Shown here piece by piece: positions 19,552 through 31,841 of a stretch of DNA of 64,000 nt (within the stretch, counting starts at the first letter, position 1; the number at the start of each line of letters is the position of its first letter). Location: IMG/VR virus record IMGVR_UViG_3300037042_003896, positions 1-64,000 of that record. One strand, given 5' to 3'. Origin of the DNA: a virus. Below the pieces are notes generated by a model. That model was not told where the DNA came from, did not search any database, and saw only the letters and a list, made by a program, of their open reading frames with translations. Both the position numbers and the translations under genes were made by a program.

Positions 19552-20184
19552 ATGTCTAAATTAGCAATACTCTATACAGATAATGCTTTTCCAGAGATAC
19601 TTAATTTATCTCTGGAGAAGTTAAGTCTGATTTCTACAGATGTACGAATTATTGTTTGTGCAAATAAACCTATAGAAAACAATAAATTTGAAGAAATTAT
19701 TGTAAATAATCCTATTAGAAATCATTATAATATAATTGAAAAAATATTAGCAGCAATAAATCACGGACAATCAACAGGAGATTACAAATATGTTAGTTTT
19801 TTAGAACATGATGTACTTTATCCACAAAATTATTTTGATTATCCTGATTTTAAAGATGCTATCATCAATGACAATTATATAGGAATGTGTAAAGATGGAT
19901 TTCAAAATAAACTTCCATGTCAATTACCATTACATCAAATGACAATGGAGATTACTTTTGCTCTTCAACATTTCAATAAACTACTTGAGCCATCTAAAAC
20001 AAGAGGTGTAGAGGTAGAACCTAAGATTAATAATAGATATTATTCAAATTATCCAGCAGTACATATTAATCATGGACGTAATTTTACAAGCCATTTTAAT
20101 TGTTATGGAAAGATATTTACATTACACAATAGTTATTGGAAAGATCACAAACCTCTTTGGGATAGAATAAAAAAAGCACCTTAA
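19552..20184 (+). CDS. Putative GT-A fold glycosyltransferase
   Basis: YVSFLEHDVLYP (DxD-like), VHINHGRNFT. Confidence 0.55.
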   Translation: MSKLAILYTDNAFPEILNLSLEKLSLISTDVRIIVCANKPIENNKFEEIIVNNPIRNHYNIIEKILAAINHGQSTGDYKYVSFLEHDVLYPQNYFDYPDFKDAIINDNYIGMCKDGFQNKLPCQLPLHQMTMEITFALQHFNKLLEPSKTRGVEVEPKINNRYYSNYPAVHINHGRNFTSHFNCYGKIFTLHNSYWKDHKPLWDRIKKAP

Positions 20185-20804
20185 TTGGTGCTTTCTTTTT
20201 TTAGTATTATTGCTGTAATAGAATGAGGACTTTTCTCTATAATTTCTATAGATTCTATTTTTTCTAATAGTTTATTAAATTCTATTTCTGAAATAAAATA
20301 TCGACTATTTAAAGAAGGTTTACCTGATTTAAGGTCTTTTAAGAGTTGTAATGTATTGTTATAAGAATTACTTCCATACCCAGGATATAATACAGGGTTT
20401 GATGTGTGAAGATCTTCGAGAATATATATTCCTTTAGGTTTAAGATGATTGAATAATGTATTAATCGTTACTTGTTGTTGTAACATTGTATGTCCACCGT
20501 CATCAATAATAAAATCGAGATTTTTAGGAAGAGTAGATAAATGATGTTTATTCTCCTGATTAATAGTAAAAGTTTTGATTCTTGTTGTATCAAACTTTTC
20601 CTTATTATGGATATCAACACCATAGATCATTCCTTGAGGAAAATATTCTTCCCACATTTTTAAAGAAAATCCATCTTGTATTCCTATTTCTAACATTTGA
20701 ATAGGAAGGTCTTTTAAAGCAGATAAAGCAACGTCATAATGGTCTAAATACCCATGCGTTGCTTTATCTGTTTTATGCTTTTTACCAATAGATGATAAAC
20801 TCAT
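20181..20804 (-). CDS. SAM-dependent sugar O-methyltransferase (MycE/TylE-like)
   Basis: TDK..HGY, LEIG...G.SL.MW..YFP...YGVDI, FIIDDGGH, L.P.G.YILEDLHTS. Confidence 0.8.
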   Translation of the reverse strand: MSLSSIGKKHKTDKATHGYLDHYDVALSALKDLPIQMLEIGIQDGFSLKMWEEYFPQGMIYGVDIHNKEKFDTTRIKTFTINQENKHHLSTLPKNLDFIIDDGGHTMLQQQVTINTLFNHLKPKGIYILEDLHTSNPVLYPGYGSNSYNNTLQLLKDLKSGKPSLNSRYFISEIEFNKLLEKIESIEIIEKSPHSITAIILKKESTN

Positions 20805-20941
20805 TTAGATAACTTTTTACCTGTCATTGGAGCCATAGGGCTCTTTCCTTTTTTAATTTTGTCCATCTCCTTCATAAAATTAGGCTTATCTTTTGGAGGA
20901 GGAGCCACCTTTGGTGCTTTTTTAGGAGTGCCTGATTTCAT
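20801..20941 (-). CDS. 46-aa Lys/Pro-rich basic peptide (not in track)
   Basis: MKSGTPKKAPKVAPPPKDKPNF...KKLSK; overlaps both neighbours. Confidence 0.6.
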   Translation of the reverse strand: MKSGTPKKAPKVAPPPKDKPNFMKEMDKIKKGKSPMAPMTGKKLSK

Positions 20942-21096
20942 TATTTCAAAATTATTGAATCAATTACAATCGTATCACATTTCAAAGAATCAACACAAGT
21001 TGAATCATTTGGTGTGGTAGAAACTTCAGGAGTCTTAGTTGTACATGATACAAACAATGTTGCAATCATAGCAACCATAAAAATTACTTTTTTCAT
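20941..21096 (-). CDS. 51-aa lipoprotein with four D-S/T-x sequons (not in track)
   Basis: MKKVIFMVAMIATLFVS-C lipobox; DST, DSL, DTI, DSI. Confidence 0.75.
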   Translation of the reverse strand: MKKVIFMVAMIATLFVSCTTKTPEVSTTPNDSTCVDSLKCDTIVIDSIILK

Positions 21097-21118
21097 TAGT
21101 CTTGTTTTAAATTAGTTA

Positions 21119-21319
21119 TTATTTATTTTTAGCCATTTTTTTAAATGTTCGGGCTAATGCTTTTCTTTTTGGTGTACAAGTTGCTTTTGTCATAGGAGTA
21201 CAAAATCCCTTATGAGCAGGATTAACTGCACCCTGAATCCAATTCTTTTTAACTTTCCCACCAGATTTTAGTGTGGAACCATTGGGTTTAATCAAAGGAC
21301 CATTGGGTACATTAGTCAT
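21119..21319 (-). CDS. Small basic protein, probably virion-internal
   Basis: LKSGGKVKKNWIQGA...LARTFKKMAK. Confidence 0.65.
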   Translation of the reverse strand: MTNVPNGPLIKPNGSTLKSGGKVKKNWIQGAVNPAHKGFCTPMTKATCTPKRKALARTFKKMAKNK

Positions 21320-21321
21320 GG

Positions 21322-21495
21322 CTATTTCTTTTTAGAGATTTTACCACCACATTTTAAACATGCTCCATTTTTTGCTTTTGCAGGAGGGAGATTCCTTTCT
21401 TGAACCTTTGTCCAAGCACCATTAGGGTCTACCATTCCAACCTTAAGAGATTTGGAAGTTACACCACCAGCTTGCATTTTTTTAACTGTTGCCAT
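21322..21495 (-). CDS. 57-aa basic peptide with xxGG motifs (not in track)
   Basis: MATVKKMQAGG...AKNG..LKCGGKISKKK. Confidence 0.65.
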   Translation of the reverse strand: MATVKKMQAGGVTSKSLKVGMVDPNGAWTKVQERNLPPAKAKNGACLKCGGKISKKK

Positions 21496-21514
21496 GATTT
21501 AATATTTTAAATTG

Positions 21515-21748
21515 TTATTCTTCTGCTTCTTCTTCTGGCATTTCATTTATCACACCTTCTTCTACAGCTTTTGCCATTATTCCTTCAATAATTACATTAG
21601 CTTTTTCTGCAAGCAGAATTTGTGCAGCAGTTTCTGTGCTAAGAATTGCTCTAATTGTGTTAAGTAAAAATCCAAAATCTCTTCCTGATAATGTAAATGT
21701 GTCCTCAGGAGTCCATGAATACTTTTTGTTTGAATCGTAGGTTGCCAT
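21515..21748 (-). CDS. Hypothetical protein
   Basis: ORF downstream of a TATCTTTG box. Confidence 0.6.
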   Translation of the reverse strand: MATYDSNKKYSWTPEDTFTLSGRDFGFLLNTIRAILSTETAAQILLAEKANVIIEGIMAKAVEEGVINEMPEEEAEE

Positions 21749-21785
21749 AATTTAAGGTTTTAGTTAGTTTGCAATTTGCGAATTG

Positions 21786-21793
21786 CAAAGATA
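21786..21793 (-). promoter_or_regulatory. -7 box
   Basis: Intergenic TATCTTTG followed by C. Confidence 0.6.
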
Positions 21794-21804
21794 CAATAAT
21801 TTTA

Positions 21805-22086
21805 TTATAATTCAATATTAAATGTAATTGTGGAAGAAGTTTTAATACTTTTTGAAAGATCTAACTTAATACCAAACTGATTATTAAACTTTAGTATCTC
21901 ACGTAATAACGCTTGTGTATACTTAGGAATACTAGGAGCAATCCGACAATATATTTTATTTCCTCCATTAGTAAATTGTATACTTGCAAATTCATCAATA
22001 GAATCTATAACTCCTTCCAAGTGAGCGAGATAAGTAAGATCGTTATCTCGCATCACATGAGGGAAGTTTTTTCTATAGATTTCCAT
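21805..22086 (-). CDS. Hypothetical protein
   Basis: Packed ORF. Confidence 0.6.
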   Translation of the reverse strand: MEIYRKNFPHVMRDNDLTYLAHLEGVIDSIDEFASIQFTNGGNKIYCRIAPSIPKYTQALLREILKFNNQFGIKLDLSKSIKTSSTITFNIEL

Positions 22087-22087
22087 A

Positions 22088-22576
22088 TTAATTTTGATTC
22101 ATTTTTAATCCTTTATTCCAAGCAGGTCTATTTTTTAATCTATCACTAGATGCTTTTCTTAATTCAGGATTTTTTATAAATTTTTCTTTACTTTTTAATC
22201 CAATCTTTTTTTTAGTTTCTTCTGAATGAAAAAATCTTCTTTCATTATTAACTTGAATATTATTGTAAATAGGACTATACATCCAAATATATTTATTTTC
22301 CCTATTTAAAATTTTTTCAGGAGAAGTACTCATTTCTACTATTTGAAAAATAAAAGTTTCTTCTCCATATTTATTCCAAGCATTTTGAAGATGGTGATTG
22401 CGATGTCTATTATGTTTTAAATCACATTTGTGTTGTGCAAAACGTTGTTTAATATTAGAACTACTACCAATATAAACATTATTGTTTATAAGATTTAATA
22501 TTTGATAGATACCACAATTTTTAAGAAGTTTTAATTTATCTTTTCTTTGAATATAAAATTCTTCTTCTGTTAACAT
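22088..22576 (-). CDS. GIY-YIG homing endonuclease with NUMOD3 motif
   Basis: GIYQI.N..N..VYIGSS..R..H, LQNAWNKYG, HSEETKKKI, AWNKG. Confidence 0.88.
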   Translation of the reverse strand: MLTEEEFYIQRKDKLKLLKNCGIYQILNLINNNVYIGSSSNIKQRFAQHKCDLKHNRHRNHHLQNAWNKYGEETFIFQIVEMSTSPEKILNRENKYIWMYSPIYNNIQVNNERRFFHSEETKKKIGLKSKEKFIKNPELRKASSDRLKNRPAWNKGLKMNQN

Positions 22577-22992
22577 TATGAAAGAGTTGTTAAATAAAGT
22601 GCTTTTGCTGCAACACCAGATAATTCCTGACTCATATTTTCTATATCTGTATAATTATTTATAGAAGCAAAATCTTCTAATTCTTTAGCAAAAGATTTTA
22701 TTTCTTGCAAAATAGTAGATAAATTTGAACCATCTACAGTAGGAATAAATTTAAAGGATTTTACTTTCTTTGCTGAATAACCCATAAATTTTTCCATTAA
22801 AGAATCTTTAAAATCATTTAAATATTCATATACATCTCCACTATTTTTATGTTCTGCATAAATAGTAGTTTGCCAATGGATTAACCACGTTTGCATAGTA
22901 AAATATGTAAGCTTACTTGCTACACCTTCAAGAGACATATCTGCTCCCATAGACTTTATCATGTCATCTGGGAATAATGATCTAATTGCCAT
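22576..22992 (-). CDS. Ferritin/Dps-like protein (DUF5856-like)
   Basis: HWQT..YAEHK....YE....D.LME..MG; C-terminal YLTTLS. Confidence 0.7.
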   Translation of the reverse strand: MAIRSLFPDDMIKSMGADMSLEGVASKLTYFTMQTWLIHWQTTIYAEHKNSGDVYEYLNDFKDSLMEKFMGYSAKKVKSFKFIPTVDGSNLSTILQEIKSFAKELEDFASINNYTDIENMSQELSGVAAKALYLTTLS

Positions 22993-23068
22993 AATATATT
23001 ATTTATTTAATTTTCATATAAAGGAGTCTCTACAAGATCATATAGTGTGAGGAGTAGGGAAATATCCA

Positions 23069-23278
23069 TTATCCTAAAAGTGTTGTAGTGGTGGTAGTTG
23101 TTGTAGAAGAAGAAGAAGTAGTGGTGGTTGTTGTAGGATTACAACATTCATATGCATTAATCTCTACCCATTTTCCTACTTTGGGCATTTTCCTAGCTAA
23201 TATTACAGAACTAGGAACTATATCTCCTGAACCATCGAATCTCACGAAGGCTTTAAGATCTCTTTTATTTGTTGCCAT
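23069..23278 (-). CDS. Small protein with poly-Thr/Ser tail (paralog B)
   Basis: LKAFVRFDGSG..KVGKW.EI..ECCNP followed by T6S4T8. Confidence 0.8.
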   Translation of the reverse strand: MATNKRDLKAFVRFDGSGDIVPSSVILARKMPKVGKWVEINAYECCNPTTTTTTSSSSTTTTTTTTLLG

Positions 23279-23296
23279 TTTCTTAAGTTTTAAAAA

Positions 23297-23485
23297 TTAA
23301 AAAGGTCCTCCTCTACCAGTTGTAGTGGTAGTAGTAGTAGTTGAAGGATTACAACATTCTGAGGCTGGTATTTCATACCACTTGCCAACTTTAGGTTTAT
23401 TCTTTCGAAGAACAAGACTGCCAGCAACCACTCGTCCACTTCCATCAAAGCGAACAAATGCTTTAAGATTTTTATCTTTTGCCAT
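23297..23485 (-). CDS. Small protein with poly-Thr tail (paralog A)
   Basis: Same domain as paralog B followed by ST8. Confidence 0.8.
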   Translation of the reverse strand: MAKDKNLKAFVRFDGSGRVVAGSLVLRKNKPKVGKWYEIPASECCNPSTTTTTTTTGRGGPF

Positions 23486-23496
23486 TTTAGTAAAAA

Positions 23497-24513
23497 TTAA
23501 TAGTTTAATTTATATTTATTTCGTAATTCATTTAATTTTGAGGTGTAATACCACGTACAATGTTTTTTTGATTCATCATGATTTAATATAAAATCTAGAT
23601 GAAAATCTTTCATAGGATCTTTACCTTGATGATATTTTCCTTTATAGAAACAAGGATAATTGTCCATTGTATCTCCAGATATTCCTGCATTATGAAAGAT
23701 TGCATAGGTATCTATTTTTATTATAGGATCAGGAGCCCAAGCAAAATCTAACTCTTTTACAACTTTACTTTTTCTATTAAAAAACCAAAGATTAAATTGT
23801 ATAGCCCAAAGATCTGCACACCATGATTGTATTCCACTATTTTCATCTTTAAAAAATTGTCGATTCACTTGTTGCAAATATGTTCTTATTGTAAGAACAT
23901 CTGCTTCAATTTTTTTCCAAAACGTAGAATCTATATTCTTTAATATATACTGAACTCCTCCAGTATTAGTATTATTATCTATTACAATTTGTTTATCTAT
24001 TCCTACTATTTTACAAACTTCTTTTAAAAAATCTCGTGATTTAGCCTCTTCTTGTTTATTAGGAAGTATATCTTTATACTTACTTTCAAAATATGAATTA
24101 TTTAAATAAGAATTAGCATCACTTACATAATTTACATCATCATCTAAAAGATGTTCTATATTTAATGATTTTAACCATATTATATCACAATCTGTATAGA
24201 TTATAGTTTTGGTTTGTAATTCTGGGTAAACTTCAAAATGTTGCCAAAGAATATGTGGTCTTAATATAGGAATATAAATATTTAAATATTCTCCTACTCC
24301 TTTGTCCTCATAAATAAATATATTTAATTTTGGATAATATTCTTTTAACTTTTCCCAATTTGTATTATATTTCCTATCTTTAGGTTTATATAATAAAATA
24401 TGGATTTGTTCTTCTTGAAAACCTCGTTCTAAACAAGATTCTATATATAGATGATTTTGCCATATAAAATATTGATCATCTGGTTGGCATGTAATTAATA
24501 TTGGTTTAGACAT
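23497..24513 (-). CDS. GT-A glycosyltransferase resembling HPAT/SERGT peptidyl O-glycosyltransferases
   Basis: YIPILRPHILWQHF...IIYTDCDII (DxD), GGVQY, SWCADLWA, FHNAG. Confidence 0.65.
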   Translation of the reverse strand: MSKPILITCQPDDQYFIWQNHLYIESCLERGFQEEQIHILLYKPKDRKYNTNWEKLKEYYPKLNIFIYEDKGVGEYLNIYIPILRPHILWQHFEVYPELQTKTIIYTDCDIIWLKSLNIEHLLDDDVNYVSDANSYLNNSYFESKYKDILPNKQEEAKSRDFLKEVCKIVGIDKQIVIDNNTNTGGVQYILKNIDSTFWKKIEADVLTIRTYLQQVNRQFFKDENSGIQSWCADLWAIQFNLWFFNRKSKVVKELDFAWAPDPIIKIDTYAIFHNAGISGDTMDNYPCFYKGKYHQGKDPMKDFHLDFILNHDESKKHCTWYYTSKLNELRNKYKLNY

Positions 24514-25048
24514 GATTCCACACTTTATTATTAATAATATAACCTATTAATGTTATTCCGACATTGTTTTTATAGGCAAGTTCTTTGTATGTAGTTTTAT
24601 TATTTTTGTATTCTTTTCTAATATTTATAACTTGTTCTTCAATTAATTTTGAATTTTTATTACCACTTCCTTTATAAGTATTAGGATCTCGATGAAGATA
24701 TGAATGTTTTATATTTTCACTTCTAGTAATCCATTCTAAATTACTTAAATTATTATTATGTTTATTATGATCAATATGATTAACTTCTATTAATTTAGTA
24801 GGATTATCTAAAAAAGTTAAAGCAACTATTCTATGAGTAGTTAAAGATTTAGATTTCCCAGCACCATTATATAATTTTACATGAAAATAACCACGACTAT
24901 CTACAAATTGTGTCAATATTTTTTGTTTTTTTAAATATTGATGAGTTGAGAGTATAATAATTCTTTCAATAGTCCTAATATTTCCTTTAGTACTTACTTC
25001 GTAATAATTTTCATATCCTTTTACTGATTTCCAAATTTCTATTTCCAT
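24506..25048 (-). CDS. NUMOD4-HNH homing endonuclease
   Basis: EIWKSVKGYENYYEVSTKG; HRIVA.TF, VNHID.NK.NN.LSNLEW.T..EN..H. Confidence 0.9.
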   Translation of the reverse strand: MEIEIWKSVKGYENYYEVSTKGNIRTIERIIILSTHQYLKKQKILTQFVDSRGYFHVKLYNGAGKSKSLTTHRIVALTFLDNPTKLIEVNHIDHNKHNNNLSNLEWITRSENIKHSYLHRDPNTYKGSGNKNSKLIEEQVINIRKEYKNNKTTYKELAYKNNVGITLIGYIINNKVWNHV

Positions 25049-25074
25049 AATATTATTATTATTAATTATAATAA

Positions 25075-25082
25075 CAAAGATA
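25075..25082 (-). promoter_or_regulatory. -7 box before NUMOD4-HNH
   Basis: TATCTTTG. Confidence 0.55.
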
Positions 25083-25162
25083 GAATTAAAATTTGACATA
25101 TCCTAATAAGTGATTGAATAATTTTTTTCATCTTTCATACGTAGTTTGGTTTTATTTTTACA

Positions 25163-25297
25163 TTAAGGGATTGCTGTGGTGGTAGTAGTTGTGGTGGAAG
25201 GACCAGCCACTCTAATAAGTTTTTCTAATTGCTTAGAAATTTGCCACAACAAATTGGTATTAGTTCCCCATCCTATTTGTCTACTTGGGATTGCCAT
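25163..25297 (-). CDS. 44-aa protein: fibre-type N-terminal anchor plus poly-Thr tail (not in track)
   Basis: MAIPSRQIGWGTNTNLLWQISKQLEKLIRVAGPSTTTTTTTAIP. Confidence 0.8.
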   Translation of the reverse strand: MAIPSRQIGWGTNTNLLWQISKQLEKLIRVAGPSTTTTTTTAIP

Positions 25298-25309
25298 TTT
25301 ATTTATAGT

Positions 25310-26134
25310 TTAATGTGTGTATTTAAATCGTTGGAAAAACCATTCGTGATTTTTATAAATCCAATCTGTAATGTCTTTTCCTAACAGTTCTTTTGCTCTT
25401 GACCTTACAGGTTCAAGTTTAGTTCTTATTTTATGATCTCCATAGATACCATAAACTTCATCATCTTCTTTTGTAACTTGTTCTATGTTATCAAAATCAT
25501 GAATATAATTAGGAAGTTCAAGATAGTCATATACTCGTTGCATTTCTTGATCTGGATAAAGACACAAATCTTCAAATTTTACAAAATGCATATGTTTGTC
25601 TAATCCCATTCTGAATATTTCTGCCAATCTTTCAATTGCCATTCCAAGAGGAGCTCCTTGTGACCAAAGATCAATTCTTTTAGCAACCGATGTTCCTTGC
25701 ATTTTACTCCAATCAAGTATATCATTATGCTTATCAGGAGCTGCTCTATAATTTTTTTCCATAGATGCAAAGACATCTCTAAGATCTCGAACAACCACTA
25801 TAACTTTAGGAGAAGGATGAACAAGATTTAGAAAATCATAATGTATTCCCCATCCTCTTGATTTATCAAGGACATATTTCTTATCTGTAATAGAACTATA
25901 AAATCCAAACATTCCTTGTCTACAGAATTCTAAAAATGCATCTCTCATTAAATCAGCATCTTGTGCTTTGAATTCAGGAGAAGTTGTATATTGTGCTCTT
26001 GCACTATATATTAATTCTAATACACCACTTGTTGGTGTAGCATAGAAATCAGGATTTTGAGCTATTATGTTTTGAAAAATTGTACTGCCTGATCGTGGTA
26101 ATGAACTTTGGTAAAAAACTTTTTCTATCATCAA
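25310..26134 (-). CDS. PAPS-dependent sulfotransferase
   Basis: 5'-PSB motif SLPRSGST; DKSR.W; 3'-PB motif VRDLRDVFAS; KFEDL. Confidence 0.85.
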   Translation of the reverse strand: MMIEKVFYQSSLPRSGSTIFQNIIAQNPDFYATPTSGVLELIYSARAQYTTSPEFKAQDADLMRDAFLEFCRQGMFGFYSSITDKKYVLDKSRGWGIHYDFLNLVHPSPKVIVVVRDLRDVFASMEKNYRAAPDKHNDILDWSKMQGTSVAKRIDLWSQGAPLGMAIERLAEIFRMGLDKHMHFVKFEDLCLYPDQEMQRVYDYLELPNYIHDFDNIEQVTKEDDEVYGIYGDHKIRTKLEPVRSRAKELLGKDITDWIYKNHEWFFQRFKYTH

Positions 26135-27006
26135 GGTTGGTTTTTGAGTGATTCGATTATTTCTTTAGTATTAAAAATTTCACTTTCTACATTGTAAGGA
26201 AACTCAATAAGATCTCCTGTAATGTTGAATTTTGAGAAATACGAATTTCTCAATTCAGGTTTAATAGTGAAGGGATTAGCTATTATGTTACTATGTAAGC
26301 TATAACCGAACACATTTGGGCTATTAACTATCCAACAAACTGTTGAAGGTTTATTCATAGCTGCTGCTGTATGTTGAGCAAAACTATCAATTAATAATCT
26401 CTTATCACTATTTTGAATTAAGACTGCCAATGACCTAAATGTGTCTGTAATAGGAACAGTTCCTTCATATCCAATTTGATCTTCACGCTTTATATGAACT
26501 ATGTTATATTCATCCTTAAAAGCGTTAATTATTTCTTGAACAACTACTATTGGAATATCTCTTGCCCAGGAATATTTAAGATCACTTAGCGCACCTCCAT
26601 TAGTTTGAAGAAGAAGAATAGGTTTGTCAGAAGTATATTTAGTACTAAAGAACTTTTTCTCCCTATCTGTTAAATAAATCTTTGGCTGTTCTTCATTATA
26701 AGGAACATTAAATAGTTTACACCACGTTTCAATAAGATGTTCATCTTGCCTAATGTGTGATGTTTCTAAATAAGGATCATGAGCGAATATTTTTATTTCT
26801 TTATCTTCTATATATTGCTCATAGAAATAACTCATACTTCCAAAGGTGTAGGTTCTGTCTACAAAAGGATTGTTAAGGAAGACATCAGAATATCCCGACA
26901 CCACTATTAAAGTGGAATCAGGATATTCTTTTTTAATTGCCTCACAAACTGCTGTAGCTAATACACATTTACCTATTCCCCCGTTGATTTGGAATATAAT
27001 GTTCAT
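26131..27006 (-). CDS. GT-B glycosyltransferase, GT9 (heptosyltransferase)-like
   Basis: GGIGK...T....IKK.YP, NNPFVD, IDSFAQH.AAA.NKPS.V.W. Confidence 0.75.
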   Translation of the reverse strand: MNIIFQINGGIGKCVLATAVCEAIKKEYPDSTLIVVSGYSDVFLNNPFVDRTYTFGSMSYFYEQYIEDKEIKIFAHDPYLETSHIRQDEHLIETWCKLFNVPYNEEQPKIYLTDREKKFFSTKYTSDKPILLLQTNGGALSDLKYSWARDIPIVVVQEIINAFKDEYNIVHIKREDQIGYEGTVPITDTFRSLAVLIQNSDKRLLIDSFAQHTAAAMNKPSTVCWIVNSPNVFGYSLHSNIIANPFTIKPELRNSYFSKFNITGDLIEFPYNVESEIFNTKEIIESLKNQP

Positions 27007-27015
27007 AGATACTTA

Positions 27016-27348
27016 TTAAAAATCAGTGTTAATAGTTACAAATTCTGTAGCAACTGTGCCCATTTCAACAGCGATAGTTGTTAAAAGAACACTATCATCA
27101 ACTCCCCATCCTGAAAGTTGAGTGGATAATAATGTAGTGTTTGATGTTGATAACCTATTAAATGATGCAGGAACACCAGCTTCATCTAATGTAATTGTTC
27201 CAAACACCACTTCAAAGTTTACCTTTGTAGCTCCAGCACCATAAGGGCGAGCAATAGCAGTCATATAATCTGCTGTGATAGTTTCTACTTCAAAAGGAGT
27301 GATTTGTTTTGTGATTGTAGCCACTGGGCTAATTTTTGCGTACAACAT
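27016..27348 (-). CDS. Hypothetical protein, possibly fibre-associated
   Basis: Beta-rich 110-aa ORF downstream of the fibre genes. Confidence 0.6.
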   Translation of the reverse strand: MLYAKISPVATITKQITPFEVETITADYMTAIARPYGAGATKVNFEVVFGTITLDEAGVPASFNRLSTSNTTLLSTQLSGWGVDDSVLLTTIAVEMGTVATEFVTINTDF

Positions 27349-27377: not shown

Positions 27378-27385
27378 CAAAGTTA
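27378..27385 (-). promoter_or_regulatory. -7 box heading the glycosylation cluster
   Basis: Intergenic TAACTTTG. Confidence 0.6.
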
Positions 27386-27410: not shown

Positions 27411-29639
27411 TTATTTTAAAATTTCTATTCCATCCCATGCTGTTACAGCATTAACGTCTTTTCTTGTTCCTATCAAAAGGACATTATATTCACCGTCACT
27501 GTTTGTGGTGACAGTTACACACGTTTGTTCTTTATTCACCACACCAAATCCATATCCTAAATGGCATGTAGCGGAAATAAACACCTGATCATTCTCATTT
27601 AAATATTTGTGATAATCAGGAAGTTCAATTATTCCACTACAATTACATGTTCTAACAATATGACGATAAATATTATCCCCTGCTGTTGGACTTTCTACAA
27701 ACGAATGTTGTAAATAATGTGTATTAGTCTTTGCAGGATTTGGATGATTTATTCTGAATGTTCCTGATGTTTTTGAAAGAGCATTAACATATGTTGTGCA
27801 AGCAGCACCTGCTGTAAGATTAGAACCAACAATGAATGAATTAGCAAAACCAGCTGTACTATTTGTTGTTCCACCTAATATTCCTGAACAAGCTCCAGAT
27901 GCTGTATTACAATATCCACCACTAACAGTTGAATAATTAGCACATGCTATATTAGTCCTTCCACCACTAACGGTTGAAAAATTACTAGATGCTGTATTAA
28001 CATACCCACCACTAACAGTTGACCAATTACCAGATGCTGTATTACTATTTCCACCACTAACAGTTGAACGATTACCAGATGCTATATTAATATATCCACC
28101 ACTAACAGTTGCATAATTACTAGATGCTGTATTAATCCTTCCACCACTGACAGTTGAAAAATTGAGAGATGCTGTATTACTATATCCACCACTAACAGTT
28201 GACCAATAACCAGATGCTGTATTACTATATCCACCACCAACAGTTGAAATATAACCAGATGCTGTATTAGTATTTCCACCACTAACAGTTGAATAATTAG
28301 CACATGCTGTATTACTATATCCACCACTAACAGTTGAATATTGACCACATGCTTTATTAGTCTTTCCACCACCAACAGTTGACCAATAACCAGATGCTGT
28401 ATTACTATATCCACCACCAACAGTTGAAATATAACCAGATGCTGTATTACTCCTTCCACCACTAACAGTTGAATAATAACCAGATGCTGTATTACTCCTT
28501 CCACCACTAACAGTTGAGGCATCACTAGATGCTATATTCTGAAATCCACCACTAACAGTTGCATAATTACTAGATGCTGTATTAATCCTTCCACCACTGA
28601 CAGTTGAATAAAGACTAGATGCTTTATTTTGAAATCCTCCACCAATAAAACTCATACAACCAGCGTCAGTTGGAGTTGGTGCTACAGACCAATAAGTTGA
28701 ATTCCACGTTCCTCCTGTGGTGTTATTTCCAATACCACCTGATATTGTTGCGCCTAATGAATAAAGACTGCAAGTTGCATTGGAGATTATGTTATTATTT
28801 CCACCACCAACAAATGAATATTGACCAGATGCTGTATTACTATATCCACCACCAACAGTTGAAAAAGAATTAGATGCTGTATTACTATATCCACCACTAA
28901 CAGTTGCATAATTACTAGATGCTGTATTAAGATTTCCACCACCAACAAATGAAAAATTACTAGATGCTGTATTAACATACCCACCACTAACAGTTGACCA
29001 ATTACCAGATGCTGTATTACTATTTCCACCACTAACAGTTGAACGATTACCAGATGCTATATTAATATATCCACCACTAACAGTTGAACAATCACCAGAT
29101 GCTGTATTTTGAAATCCTCCACCAACAAAAGACATAGCACCAGCATTACAAATAGTTGGTGCTGATGTAAATACACATGTTGCTAAATCCCAAGTTCCTC
29201 CTGTTGTATTATTTCCTACACCACCTGTAACAACTGCTCCTATTGCAAGACAACCTGAAGTTACATTGCAAACATTGTTACAATTACCACCACCAATGAA
29301 ACCTTGTACTGCTTGAGATAGATTTTTAAATCCACCACTAATTGTTGAATGATTACCAGATGCTGTATTAACATACCCACCACTAACAGTTGACCAATAA
29401 CCAGATGCTGTATTAGTAAATCCGCCACTAACAGTTGAATAATCTCCACTAGCACTATTACTATTCCCACAACGCATTGTGGAATTTGCTCCTGTTCCCA
29501 AGATCATAATAGATGAACTTGGAGGAATAGGTACAACTGTAGAAGCTACCACTTGTGTGAGCCGTGAAAGTTGTTTTAATATATTTTGTAATAGGTTTGA
29601 ATCATCACTCCAACCTATTTGTCTCGAAGGTATTGCCAT
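27411..29639 (-). CDS. Virion fibre/adhesin with 14-aa beta-solenoid repeats
   Basis: NTASGxxSTVSGGx repeats; C-terminal F.I.HP..L.H..VE.P chaperone-like domain. Confidence 0.75.
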   Translation of the reverse strand: MAIPSRQIGWSDDSNLLQNILKQLSRLTQVVASTVVPIPPSSSIMILGTGANSTMRCGNSNSASGDYSTVSGGFTNTASGYWSTVSGGYVNTASGNHSTISGGFKNLSQAVQGFIGGGNCNNVCNVTSGCLAIGAVVTGGVGNNTTGGTWDLATCVFTSAPTICNAGAMSFVGGGFQNTASGDCSTVSGGYINIASGNRSTVSGGNSNTASGNWSTVSGGYVNTASSNFSFVGGGNLNTASSNYATVSGGYSNTASNSFSTVGGGYSNTASGQYSFVGGGNNNIISNATCSLYSLGATISGGIGNNTTGGTWNSTYWSVAPTPTDAGCMSFIGGGFQNKASSLYSTVSGGRINTASSNYATVSGGFQNIASSDASTVSGGRSNTASGYYSTVSGGRSNTASGYISTVGGGYSNTASGYWSTVGGGKTNKACGQYSTVSGGYSNTACANYSTVSGGNTNTASGYISTVGGGYSNTASGYWSTVSGGYSNTASLNFSTVSGGRINTASSNYATVSGGYINIASGNRSTVSGGNSNTASGNWSTVSGGYVNTASSNFSTVSGGRTNIACANYSTVSGGYCNTASGACSGILGGTTNSTAGFANSFIVGSNLTAGAACTTYVNALSKTSGTFRINHPNPAKTNTHYLQHSFVESPTAGDNIYRHIVRTCNCSGIIELPDYHKYLNENDQVFISATCHLGYGFGVVNKEQTCVTVTTNSDGEYNVLLIGTRKDVNAVTAWDGIEILK

Positions 29640-31680
29640 AACTTATATGTTTTTTTCTATTATTAGTTTATCTATATCTTTCCTTTCGGCATATACACTA
29701 TAAAAACAATCTATCTGGACTCCATTAATTTCAATCTCATTAGCTGTGACCGATTTGACTGATAGGGCTTGATAATCCCCAATAGGCGTAAGATGTACTG
29801 TTATTGTATCTTCATGGACTAAATTAATCCAATATTCAGGAAGTGTAATTTTATTTATTCCTGTTAATCTTCCACGAACATAAACAGAATGTTCAGGTCC
29901 TTCTAAGACACCATATTGTAGGGTCATTTGTGGCTTGGTTGGATGAGGAATTACAAATGATTTTGTTGCTCCATATATTCCACCACTAGCACAAAGATTA
30001 TTAACATAAGTGGTACAAACTGCTCCTGCTGTAAGATTAGAACCAACAATAAATGAATCTGCAAAACCAGCTGTACTATTACTCTTTCCACCTAATATTC
30101 CTGAACAAGCTCCAGATGCTATATTACTAACTCCACCACCAACAGTTGAATAATTACCAGATGCTGTATTAACATTTCCACCACCAACAGTTGAAATATA
30201 ACCAGATGCTATATTACTTTTTCCACCACCAACAGTTGAATAATTACCAGATGCTGTATTAGTATTTCCACCACCAACAATTGAATAATAACCAGATGCT
30301 GTATTACTCCTTCCACCACCAACAGTTGAAATATAACCAGATGCTATATTACTTTTTCCACCACCAACAGTTGAAGTATTACCAGATGCTGTATTAGTAT
30401 TTCCACCACCAACAGTTGAAATATAACCAGATGCTGTATTACTATTTCCACCACTAACAGTTGAATATTGACCAGATGCTGTGTTACCAGTTCCACCACT
30501 AACAGTTGCACGATTACTAGATGCTGTATTAACCCTTCCACCACCAACAAATGAATATTGACCAGATGCTGTATTACAATATCCACCACCAACAGTTGAA
30601 CTAGTAGCATTTGCTACATTTCTAGTCCCACCACTAACAGTCGAACAAATACCAGATGCTGTGTTTAATAAACCACATCTTATTGTAGAATCTGCTCCTG
30701 CACCTACTATTATTATTGGTGCTGCGCCTCCTGGTGCTGGTGTATTGACTAATACACCATTAGTTGTTACACAAACAAAACATCCTGTTGTTAAATTAGC
30801 TGCAGATAAACAGTTTACGAATGTTGTACAAGTTTGTGTTGCTGTAAGATTTGAGCCAACAATAAATGAATCAGCAAATCCACATGTGTTATTTAATTTT
30901 CCACCTAGAATAGTTGAAAAATCACTAGATGCTATATTATTACATCCTCCTGATACAGAAGAATAATCATTAAGTGCGCAGTTTTGAAATCCTCCACTTA
31001 CCGTTGAGGCATATCCCGCTGCTATATTTCCTGGACGAGTTGTAGGTGGATAAAATAATGATGCAGTATTCCCTCCTCCACTGATTGTCGAAAGTGTTCC
31101 TGTAGCTAAATTACATCCACCACCACTTATTGTCGCAAGAGTACCACATATAGAATTAAAACTTCCACTACCAATAAACGAATTATAACCGCTATATATA
31201 CGATTAAAGTCTCCTCCTGTTATAGCGCTATTTCCACTTATCGCACAATTATAATATCCTCCACTAACAGTTGAATTTCTACCAGATACTCGATTACTAC
31301 GTCCACCACCTATAAAGGAATACATTCCTGAAGCAGTATTACAAGTTCCACCTACTACTACATCATCATATGATGTTGCTGAATTTTTAGTTCCTCCACC
31401 AACAAAAGTTCCAAGATATGTAGAATTATTACATATTCCTCCACCAATTGTTGCGTTATTACCAGATGCTGTATTAGTATTTCCACCACCAACAAATGAA
31501 TAACCACCAGATGCCATATTACCAATTCCACCACTAATAGTTGAATAACTATTATATGCTGTATTATTTATTCCACCACTAACAGTTGAACCAACACTTG
31601 AACAAACAGGATTAGATGCTGTATTACAAAATCCACCACTGACAGTTGAATAAAGACCAGATGCACTATTAAAACTTCCA
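27880..31680. repeat. 42-bp coding tandem repeat blocks in both fibre genes
   Basis: Recurrent CCACCAC(T/C)AACAGTTGA...(C/T)AGATGCTGTATTA units. Confidence 0.9.
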
Positions 31681-31841
31681 TCTCTCATTGTAGAACATGT
31701 TCCTGTTCCTGCAATCATAATAGAAGGGGCAGAAGGAGGACTAACTGCTGCAATTATTGCGTCAAGATTTAATTCTCCTTTTACAGGAGTTGTGGTTTTT
31801 CTCCAAATACCACTTTTGATATATACATTTGAGTTTGACAT
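29643..31841 (-). CDS. Second virion fibre/adhesin with 14-aa repeats
   Basis: Same repeat; KSFVIPHP..LQYGVLEGPE C-terminal domain. Confidence 0.75.
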   Translation of the reverse strand: MSNSNVYIKSGIWRKTTTPVKGELNLDAIIAAVSPPSAPSIMIAGTGTCSTMRDGSFNSASGLYSTVSGGFCNTASNPVCSSVGSTVSGGINNTAYNSYSTISGGIGNMASGGYSFVGGGNTNTASGNNATIGGGICNNSTYLGTFVGGGTKNSATSYDDVVVGGTCNTASGMYSFIGGGRSNRVSGRNSTVSGGYYNCAISGNSAITGGDFNRIYSGYNSFIGSGSFNSICGTLATISGGGCNLATGTLSTISGGGNTASLFYPPTTRPGNIAAGYASTVSGGFQNCALNDYSSVSGGCNNIASSDFSTILGGKLNNTCGFADSFIVGSNLTATQTCTTFVNCLSAANLTTGCFVCVTTNGVLVNTPAPGGAAPIIIVGAGADSTIRCGLLNTASGICSTVSGGTRNVANATSSTVGGGYCNTASGQYSFVGGGRVNTASSNRATVSGGTGNTASGQYSTVSGGNSNTASGYISTVGGGNTNTASGNTSTVGGGKSNIASGYISTVGGGRSNTASGYYSIVGGGNTNTASGNYSTVGGGKSNIASGYISTVGGGNVNTASGNYSTVGGGVSNIASGACSGILGGKSNSTAGFADSFIVGSNLTAGAVCTTYVNNLCASGGIYGATKSFVIPHPTKPQMTLQYGVLEGPEHSVYVRGRLTGINKITLPEYWINLVHEDTITVHLTPIGDYQALSVKSVTANEIEINGVQIDCFYSVYAERKDIDKLIIEKNI

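Follow-up and report, generated by a model that had tools for sequence, protein, structure and literature searches.

A GT-A glycosyltransferase gene coupled to poly-threonine proteins in a freshwater phage, a candidate system for virion glycosylation

Phage-encoded glycosylation of virions has been experimentally established mainly for a few mycobacteriophages, in which it alters antibody recognition. Freeman et al. 2023 reportedly found that O-methyltransferase genes adjoin the mycobacteriophage glycosyltransferase (GT) genes and that the C-termini of capsid and tail-tube proteins are modified. In mycobacteriophage Che8 and other members of cluster F1, phage GTs put glycans on virion proteins, forming a glycan shield (as cited in PMC11256854 and PMC12582341). 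This is the closest known system to the one considered here, which is encoded in a 64-kb stretch (the window) comprising the first 64 kb of IMG/VR virus record IMGVR_UViG_3300037042_003896 (99,683 bp, about 30% G+C), a phage whose DNA is contained in lake-water and sediment metagenomes from several studies. The locus includes a GT of GT-A fold (338 aa) among three mini-proteins with poly-threonine (poly-Thr) tails and, beside them, a GT9-like enzyme and a sulfotransferase. Our best reading of the region is that of two juxtaposed cassettes that would modify the virion surface of a freshwater phage of about 100-115 kb. The recurrence of the enzyme-plus-poly-Thr pairing in many unrelated phages suggests that sugar-coated particles are far commoner than the few known cases.

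The GT of the first cassette is encoded at 23497-24513 (minus strand, as are all features below unless stated otherwise) and belongs to phrog_4417 (2e-48). Its AlphaFold2 model, for which 57 homologues were used, has a GT-A Rossmann-like fold with a predicted local distance difference test score (pLDDT) of 95.3. VIA-align of this model gave fold matches of Z 13-14.4, with alignments spanning 220-250 residues, to glycogenin (Z 14.4, root-mean-square deviation 3.9 A, 233 aa), LgtC (14.2), the UGGT catalytic domain (14.1), GlyE (13.2), and also to a Skp1 galactosyltransferase. Among 57 homologues with 23-75% identity, both aspartates of the metal and nucleotide-sugar motif DxD (D108-x-D110) are invariant. 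No Pfam or NCBIfam family, Glyco_transf_8 and related profiles included, matched the enzyme at E <= 0.1, and neither this GT nor the GT9-like one, used singly or as a profile, found a match among PDB sequences. Since there is no sequence-profile match, we file the enzyme as one of GT8-like fold and not as a member of GT8. Its family is large, with about 1000 clusters at 50% identity; fusions to Methyltransf_24, GT6, GT2, or radical SAM/SPASM domains occur in some of them. The fusions to a radical SAM/SPASM or GT6 domain in two relatives of the enzyme (P0433 and P0416) hint at more elaborate modifications in other viruses.

Two of the three mini-proteins share a 48-aa "ECCNP" head. The first, of 69 aa (23069-23278), has an 18-residue Thr/Ser tail; the second, of 62 aa (23297-23485), is 56% identical to it, ends in an S-T8 tail, and was matched by the head profile at 1.4e-35 in the phage's own genome. 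Heads of the homologues, that is, their first 48 residues, are 55-95% identical and have a core of approximately LKAFVRFDG ... PKVGKW.EI ... ECCNP, which in all sampled homologues of the 69-aa protein is followed by a Thr/Ser tract of about 15-45 residues. Because at least 395 protein clusters and at least 316 IMG/VR contigs encode the same head with a poly-Thr/Ser tail, the mini-proteins are not chance open reading frames (ORFs); the Thr codons in their tails are mixed. Longer proteins with this head continue through a poly-Thr linker into Peptidase_S74, Lcl_C/DUF1566, DUF3494 "ice-binding-like", LRR_5, or other beta domains, and since these relatives add payloads, we regard the head as the N-terminal module by which fibre-like proteins dock, and the mini-proteins as versions of these proteins that have no payload. 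The third mini-protein (44 aa, 25163-25297) consists of a fibre-type N-terminal anchor of about 33 aa and a T7 tail. Its N-terminus is 56% identical over 34 aa to that of a 742-aa fibre encoded upstream, and in other relatives the anchor forms the N-terminus of long fibres, collagen-like ones among them. Versions of this mini-protein of 42-52 aa with T7-9 ends are encoded just upstream of the GT gene in at least 25 relatives. Among 185,579 species genomes the head family had four matches, all in contigs of metagenome-assembled genomes (MAGs), one of which, of 112 kb, resembles a whole phage.

In one near-identical strain (L002 10001-10216), which is otherwise 99-100% identical in most genes of the block, the tail of the 69-aa mini-protein (23069-23140) is swapped, and an acidic ..DILLLEDGG.. 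replaces the poly-Thr. Contigs from lakes and sediments likewise break right past the ECCN motif and continue into acidic or different poly-Thr tails; because of breaks at the tracts they yield no series of tract lengths. The mini-proteins were also considered as precursors of lanthipeptides or other ribosomally synthesised and post-translationally modified peptides (RiPPs), given their Cys residues and Ser/Thr core; this was rejected, as the heads occur on fibre-like fusions and no RiPP-type modification enzyme was found among the scanned neighbourhood genes.

A survey by tblastn of window proteins against 84 related loci that hold a head-type mini-protein revealed the GT-A gene in 77 of them, directly upstream of the head-type gene (by 11 bp in the window). 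The anchor-type mini-protein is usually encoded just upstream of the GT-A gene, which is thus flanked by poly-Thr mini-proteins. Since shared ancestry alone could explain this adjacency within one lineage, unrelated phages were examined. The gene upstream of the GT homologue encodes a 428-aa protein with an internal Thr/Ser run of about 20 residues in Chryseobacterium phage MA9V-3, an annotated major capsid protein with a T6-KP-T7 tail in Enterococcus phage 4995_1, a 305-aa protein with a similar tail in Lacticaseibacillus phage R3.3, a 109-aa protein with T14 in Staphylococcus phage PT94, and a product with (TTVAP)n repeats in Levilactobacillus phage ENFP1. A poly-Thr tract also stands beside the GT homologue in contigs of 111-253 kb, and in Enterococcus phages 4995_1 and Planchet the GT homologue directly follows the annotated major capsid gene. 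The density of poly-Thr tracts within 1.5 kb of the GT gene on the same strand, compared with that further away in the same loci, was 0.574 vs. 0.014 tracts/kb in the lineage of the phage (a nearby tract in 64 of 75 loci), 0.333 vs. 0.064 in Enterococcus prophages (78/80 loci, mostly near-identical and hence few independent cases), and 0.190 vs. 0.018 in the MA9V-3-like set with contigs of up to 385 kb (12/23 loci).

The best single test of this coupling is a natural loss. Record G005 (114,968 bp, 99% complete) contains no match to the GT-A profile in a profile search. At its syntenic site the anchor mini-protein ends without Thr and the head is fused straight to a beta domain, and genome-wide it has no poly-Thr tract, as compared with 5-22 tracts (in 2-10 ORFs) in six GT-bearing relatives. 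The large structural protein is kept in G005, with 62% identity over the first 1540 residues. The idea, put forward in an initial annotation of this DNA, of a dedicated GT beside poly-Thr acceptors is supported by the adjacency within the lineage, by its recurrence in several unrelated lineages, and by the joint loss in G005.

The end of the major capsid gene of Enterococcus phage Planchet (OX422066, L091, 4740-4900) lies just past a canonical -1 slippery heptamer, C CCA AAA. Reading on in the -1 frame yields about 40 poly-Thr codons before a stop about 110 nt ahead of the GT homologue. As judged from these sequence features, the gene is a candidate for programmed frameshifting, by which some of the capsid subunits would acquire a poly-Thr tail.

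All 13 poly-Thr tracts in the phage's own genome (G000) are encoded in the late block of the minus strand. They are carried by the three mini-proteins, a 1980-aa protein (five tracts), a 377-aa protein with a T7 end, a Fib_succ_major protein, a 237-aa protein, and a 45-aa open frame at about 85 kb with a single 6-residue tract. The 1980-aa protein (G000 64457-70399, outside the window; L339 1458-7400) is a "virion structural protein" (phrog_37948, 1.5e-111; phrog_15100), the C-terminal third of which is a chain of small domains connected by poly-Thr/Ser linkers, five in number and at most 36 residues long. The 377-aa protein (G000 78480-79613; L340 6481-7614) is encoded in the structural block and ends with ..CITTTTTTTGLVVM; its assignment as a capsid protein was dropped, as it is a capsid or decoration protein candidate by position only, with no PHROG, Pfam, or PDB match. 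The payloads of the head-bearing proteins and the S74 chaperones are typical of fibres, and the anchor of the 44-aa mini-protein is common to the 742-aa fibre. In the window, the GT-A gene stands between the genes of these anchor-bearing mini-proteins, downstream of the fibre genes. The mini-proteins are thus expected to be present in virions.

The second cassette is accompanied by a 110-aa ORF (27016-27348) that has no family match; in 56 of the 144 loci described below, this ORF adjoins the GT9-like gene. The GT9-like enzyme itself (291 aa, 26131-27006) has a GT-B fold in its AlphaFold2 model (pLDDT 90.1). The best PDB matches of this model in Foldseek are all GT9 enzymes: 3tov (7.4e-11; query TM-score 0.62-0.69), WaaF (1psw, 1.2e-10), WaaC (2.7e-08), and TibC (4rap/4rb4, 5.3e-07; query TM-score 0.61-0.64). 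With Pfam Glyco_transf_9, three of its 38 homologues reach an E of 0.026 at best; the family is present in 15% of the members among its Atlas neighbours. The adjoining gene (25310-26134) encodes a 274-aa sulfotransferase of the 3'-phosphoadenosine-5'-phosphosulfate (PAPS) type, with Pfam matches to Sulfotransfer_3 (1.4e-16, 61.8 bits vs. a cut-off of 27) and Sulfotransfer_1 (1.3e-13, 51.4 bits vs. 22). Its translation shows the PAPS-binding motifs of the family, with PRSGST (residues 13-18) as the 5'-phosphosulfate loop and RDLRD (near residue 106) as the 3'-phosphate motif. The protein has a weak similarity to NoeE (5e-08) and no match among PDB sequences. Upstream of this cassette are the genes of two fibres with UspA1-type/beta-roll, Ser/Thr/Gly-rich repeats, one of 742 aa (27411-29639; UspA1_rep 2e-43, LbR_Ice_bind 3.6e-12) and one of 732 aa (29643-31841; LbR_Ice_bind 1.1e-09, UspA1_rep 2.6e-07).

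A search of IMG/VR with the 291-aa and 274-aa proteins yielded 144 loci, 138 of which contain both genes. Homologues of the 742-aa and 732-aa fibres are encoded in 110 and 108 of them, respectively, and the linkage of the pair to the fibres is kept where the orientation is inverted (L209, L213, L215, L216). A GT-A gene lies within 6 kb of the pair in only 8/144 loci, and of 14 near-complete genomes with GT-A and poly-Thr genes only 2 encode the sulfotransferase. Conversely, the pair is present, with no detectable GT-A gene, in four phage records that are larger but incomplete. The pair therefore belongs with the fibres rather than with the GT-A gene.

The reading that we favour, and consider more probable than not, is that poly-Thr tracts mark virion proteins for O-glycosylation as a portable tag, which the mini-proteins, as anchors with no payload, serve to display. 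In the mechanism proposed here, of which we infer every chemical step as well as the donor sugars, the 338-aa enzyme, cytoplasmic and metal-dependent, is predicted to transfer sugar from a nucleotide sugar to the Thr/Ser hydroxyls of the poly-Thr tracts before virion assembly. The three mini-proteins would be the smallest carriers of the tag, comprising only an N-terminal docking module (the 48-aa head in two of them, the anchor in common with the tail fibre in the 44-aa one) and the tag. Since the docking modules of their paralogues carry lectin-like, leucine-rich repeat (LRR), and beta-solenoid payloads, the mini-proteins would occupy the same virion sites and show only a brush of glycosylated Thr. 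Other structural proteins of the phage, with poly-Thr in their linkers and tails, would be substrates of the enzyme too. By analogy to TibC/AAH, the GT9-fold enzyme and the PAPS sulfotransferase of the second cassette would most likely add a sugar, possibly sulfated, to the Ser/Thr-rich fibres.

Several observations weigh against this reading. In many secreted bacterial proteins, poly-Thr simply links one domain to the next. The GT-A enzyme has no Pfam or CAZy-type sequence match that would indicate its donor or linkage, and the head domain had no match in 50,697 phage records, which leaves no cultured phage with the head there. Poly-Thr is missing from 22 of 93 head paralogues in genomes that have the GT, from the acidic-tailed 69-aa mini-protein of the 99%-identical strain, and, as a strict tract near the GT, from 11 of 23 MA9V-3-like loci, while the co-loss of GT and tracts rests on one GT-less genome. 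As to the second cassette, the 291-aa protein scores 11 bits with Pfam Glyco_transf_9 (cut-off 22), and the acceptor is purely inferred. The head paralogues without poly-Thr and the swapped acidic tail indicate that the tag is dispensable on any single carrier.

Some of these points would be expected if the tracts were unmodified linkers or spacers and the GT-A enzyme acted on host envelope glycans, on teichoic acid or lipopolysaccharide (LPS) precursors, or on DNA, its adjacency to the tracts reflecting a shared variable region of structural modules. Poly-Thr is clearly an interdomain linker in the 1980-aa protein and in the head-payload fusions, the enzyme is outside any family with a known acceptor, and the 11 MA9V-3-like loci without a nearby tract fit this explanation as well. 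However, many tracts are terminal and have nothing to link, as in the mini-proteins and in the capsid C-termini of the Enterococcus and Lacticaseibacillus phages. The enrichment near the GT is relative to flanking DNA of these very loci, which are themselves structural, the GT-less G005 lost every tract, linkers included, and the nearest folds of the enzyme include those of protein-glycosylating enzymes (glycogenin, GlyE, UGGT). We consider this explanation unlikely.

The initial annotation combined all these genes into a single pathway, in which one GT primes the mini-proteins, the GT9-like enzyme lengthens the chain, and caps are added by the sulfotransferase and the methyltransferase, giving a sulfated, methylated mucin-like brush. 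The enzymes named in it were confirmed, namely, a DxD GT-A enzyme, a GT9-like GT, and a sulfotransferase, as were the three poly-Thr mini-proteins, which have homologues in hundreds of clusters. The genes form one packed, probably co-transcribed block, in which the end of the sulfotransferase gene is only 12 nt from the 44-aa mini-protein gene, and the likeness of the sulfotransferase to NoeE, weak as it is, would point to a carbohydrate-directed enzyme. All of the 10 near-complete pair-bearing records of the lineage also have the GT-A gene, a figure that follows from the latter being a core gene of the lineage. Against one pathway stand the linkage of the pair to fibres and not to poly-Thr, the rarity of GT-A genes near the pair and of the sulfotransferase in GT-A/poly-Thr genomes, and the four records in which only the pair is detectable. 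We find a single pathway quite unlikely, and the interpretation of the initial annotation as a whole is partly supported.

The least likely of the alternatives is that the mini-proteins are intracellular or released small proteins (decoys, regulators, or anti-defence proteins) with a basic head that binds a host target and a GT that stabilises them: the head is indeed basic and unusually conserved for a phage protein (55-95% across hundreds of clusters), and among the conserved neighbours is the gene of a Dps-like DUF5856 protein, not genes of the classical structural kind, but the same head bears payloads such as fibres typically have (S74 chaperone, lectin-like, LRR, and beta-solenoid), the anchor of the 44-aa mini-protein is that of a bona fide fibre, and the family is absent from bacterial genomes save for the phage-like MAG contigs.

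The reading of poly-Thr as a glycosylation tag on virion proteins can be widened to tailed phages in general. Poly-Thr would then be a tag read by one dedicated GT8-like family. Capsid C-termini, fibres, and linkers would bear it, as would mini-proteins made of an anchor only, and its range would take in jumbo phages as well as phages of Bacteroidota and of Firmicutes. In the lineage considered here, the second cassette would add sulfated sugars to the adhesin-like fibres, making this the first sulfated phage particle. This joint claim is tentative, and in our judgement it falls a little short of an even chance.

The minus-strand block ends with the gene of a 207-aa protein (20181-20804; phrog_21658, 1.6e-27), a MycE/TylE-like O-methyltransferase catalytic domain, as annotated initially. 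In a phmmer search of PDB it matched MycE (3ssm, 8.2e-20, chain residues 185-336) and TylE (8ia9, 1.6e-19); it aligns only to the C-terminal catalytic half of these macrolide enzymes of about 400 aa and lacks their N-terminal auxiliary domain. A homologue of METHYLTRANSFERASE at 20181-20804, with 26-37% identity, is encoded in 17 of the 84 related loci. Methyltransferase domains fused to members of the GT-A family are remote to this enzyme (E 6e-04 and 0.13). With a homologue in so few loci, the role of a glycan cap assigned to the methyltransferase is weakened; the Methyltransf_24 fusions elsewhere in the GT family make glycan methylation by this enzyme plausible, and it may O-methylate the glycan of one of the two cassettes. 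The "other GT-like gene" of the initial annotation, is a 210-aa ORF on the plus strand (19552-20184). Searches of Pfam, PHROGs, NCBIfam, PDB, and the phage database matched it to nothing, and its similarity to the GT-A family in hhalign has a probability of 0.3%; it was dropped from the system.

Every ORF named in the initial annotation is present at its position, and the cassette, the mini-proteins, and the methyltransferase are all encoded on the minus strand. Replication genes of the plus strand stop at 20184, where they converge with the long minus-strand block that contains giant virion proteins, an M15 endolysin, the two fibres, and the genes discussed here. A perfect 8-bp hairpin with a T run at 20173-20194, exactly at the point of convergence, is likely a bidirectional terminator. 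The order after the fibres is the 110-aa ORF, the 291-aa GT, the sulfotransferase, the 44-aa mini-protein, an HNH/NUMOD4 gene, the 338-aa GT, and the 62-aa and 69-aa mini-proteins, with tight spacing of -8 to 63 nt between genes from the 110-aa ORF through the last mini-protein. Past the latter, ten more small or conserved genes precede the methyltransferase gene. One of them (22576-22992) encodes a homologue of the DUF5856/Dps-like "starvation-inducible regulator" (phrog_858) and lies directly downstream of the mini-proteins in 79 of 84 relatives; it is followed by conserved ORFs of 93 and 77 aa with no function assigned. The annotated promoter box of the Bacteroidota -7 type (TAnnTTTG), TAACTTTG, was found by a motif scan at 27378-27385, 37 nt upstream of the 110-aa ORF; only 10 motifs of this type occur on the minus strand in 15 kb, and the box alone is weak evidence of a promoter. 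A scan for sigma-70 promoters performed no better than on shuffled sequence.

The HNH insert was confirmed as a homing endonuclease gene (24506-25099; Pfam NUMOD4 1.7e-13, HNH_3 3.8e-07) between the 44-aa mini-protein and GT genes. Of the 84 related loci, no more than 14 were found to have a homologue of it, and where no HNH gene intervenes the mini-protein gene adjoins the GT gene. Different HNH genes, 30-35% identical to that of the window, occupy the same junction in L015, L061, L066, L072, and L079, which suggests that the junction of the anchor-type mini-protein and GT genes is a recurrent homing site. In a DNA-level search of the phage database only HNH fragments were matched.

If poly-Thr is a glycosylation tag, poly-Thr tails of phage proteins would lend themselves to annotation as glycosites, conserved mini-genes now labelled "hypothetical" would, as a class, have an explanation, and glycan-coated virions would be common and not a mycobacteriophage curiosity. 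This would have a bearing on phage immunogenicity, on adhesion to mucus or matrices of polysaccharide, and on how therapeutic phages are designed, and the fibre-linked GT9/sulfotransferase pair would represent a separate, new kind of virion modification. The presence of the GT family in cultured phages of Enterococcus, Lacticaseibacillus, Staphylococcus, and Chryseobacterium makes these predictions testable at once.

In a full-text literature search, neither the pairing of poly-Thr with a GT in phages nor DUF7164 or phrog_4417 was the subject of any paper found, and the homopolymeric tag and its anchor-only carriers were likewise without a description. The system can be compared with several described elsewhere. 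The best structural match of the 338-aa enzyme, glycogenin (GT8), has the same GT-A fold and DxD motif and transfers sugar to a protein hydroxyl, but it is only 7-9% identical and self-glucosylates one Tyr. Further GT8 enzymes act in serine-rich-repeat (SRR) adhesin pathways. In the system of Streptococcus pneumoniae, a GT-A/GT8 enzyme, GlyE (PDB 5gvw), O-glycosylates Ser/Thr tracts and is encoded beside its substrate, as would be the case here. SRR adhesin glycosylation, however, starts with the GT-B pair GtfA/B and is followed by SecA2 export, whereas here there is one conserved GT-A gene, with release by phage lysis. Plant hydroxyproline O-arabinosyltransferases (HPATs) glycosylate hydroxy-amino-acid tracts. 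Among the clusters that a language model places near the 338-aa enzyme are one with HPAT (PF23452) in 10% of its members and others with DUF7164 in most; the enzyme has no Pfam match to PF23452 (HPAT/GT95), and this likeness is a lead only.

The second cassette resembles the TibC/AAH autotransporter heptosyltransferases, whose target is Ser in the repeats of adhesins, in that the gene of a GT9-fold enzyme stands beside that of a repetitive, Ser/Thr-rich, beta-structured adhesin. The phage 291-aa protein is about 100 aa shorter than TibC, WaaF and the Veillonella GT9 enzyme match it better, and the constant sulfotransferase partner is found only here. Virion glycosylation of the mycobacteriophage type has in common with the first cassette a phage GT gene beside structural genes, as in Enterococcus phages 4995_1 and Planchet, and its nearest parallel would be provided by the capsid C-terminal poly-Thr tails in the Enterococcus and Lacticaseibacillus phages. 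The two differ in their hosts, which are Actinobacteria there and of the Bacteroidota type as well as Firmicutes here, and in the features particular to the phages described here: the phrog_4417 GT family, the homopolymeric Thr tag, and the payload-less carrier mini-proteins. The evidence points to a different and much wider enzyme family with a simple, recognisable acceptor tag.

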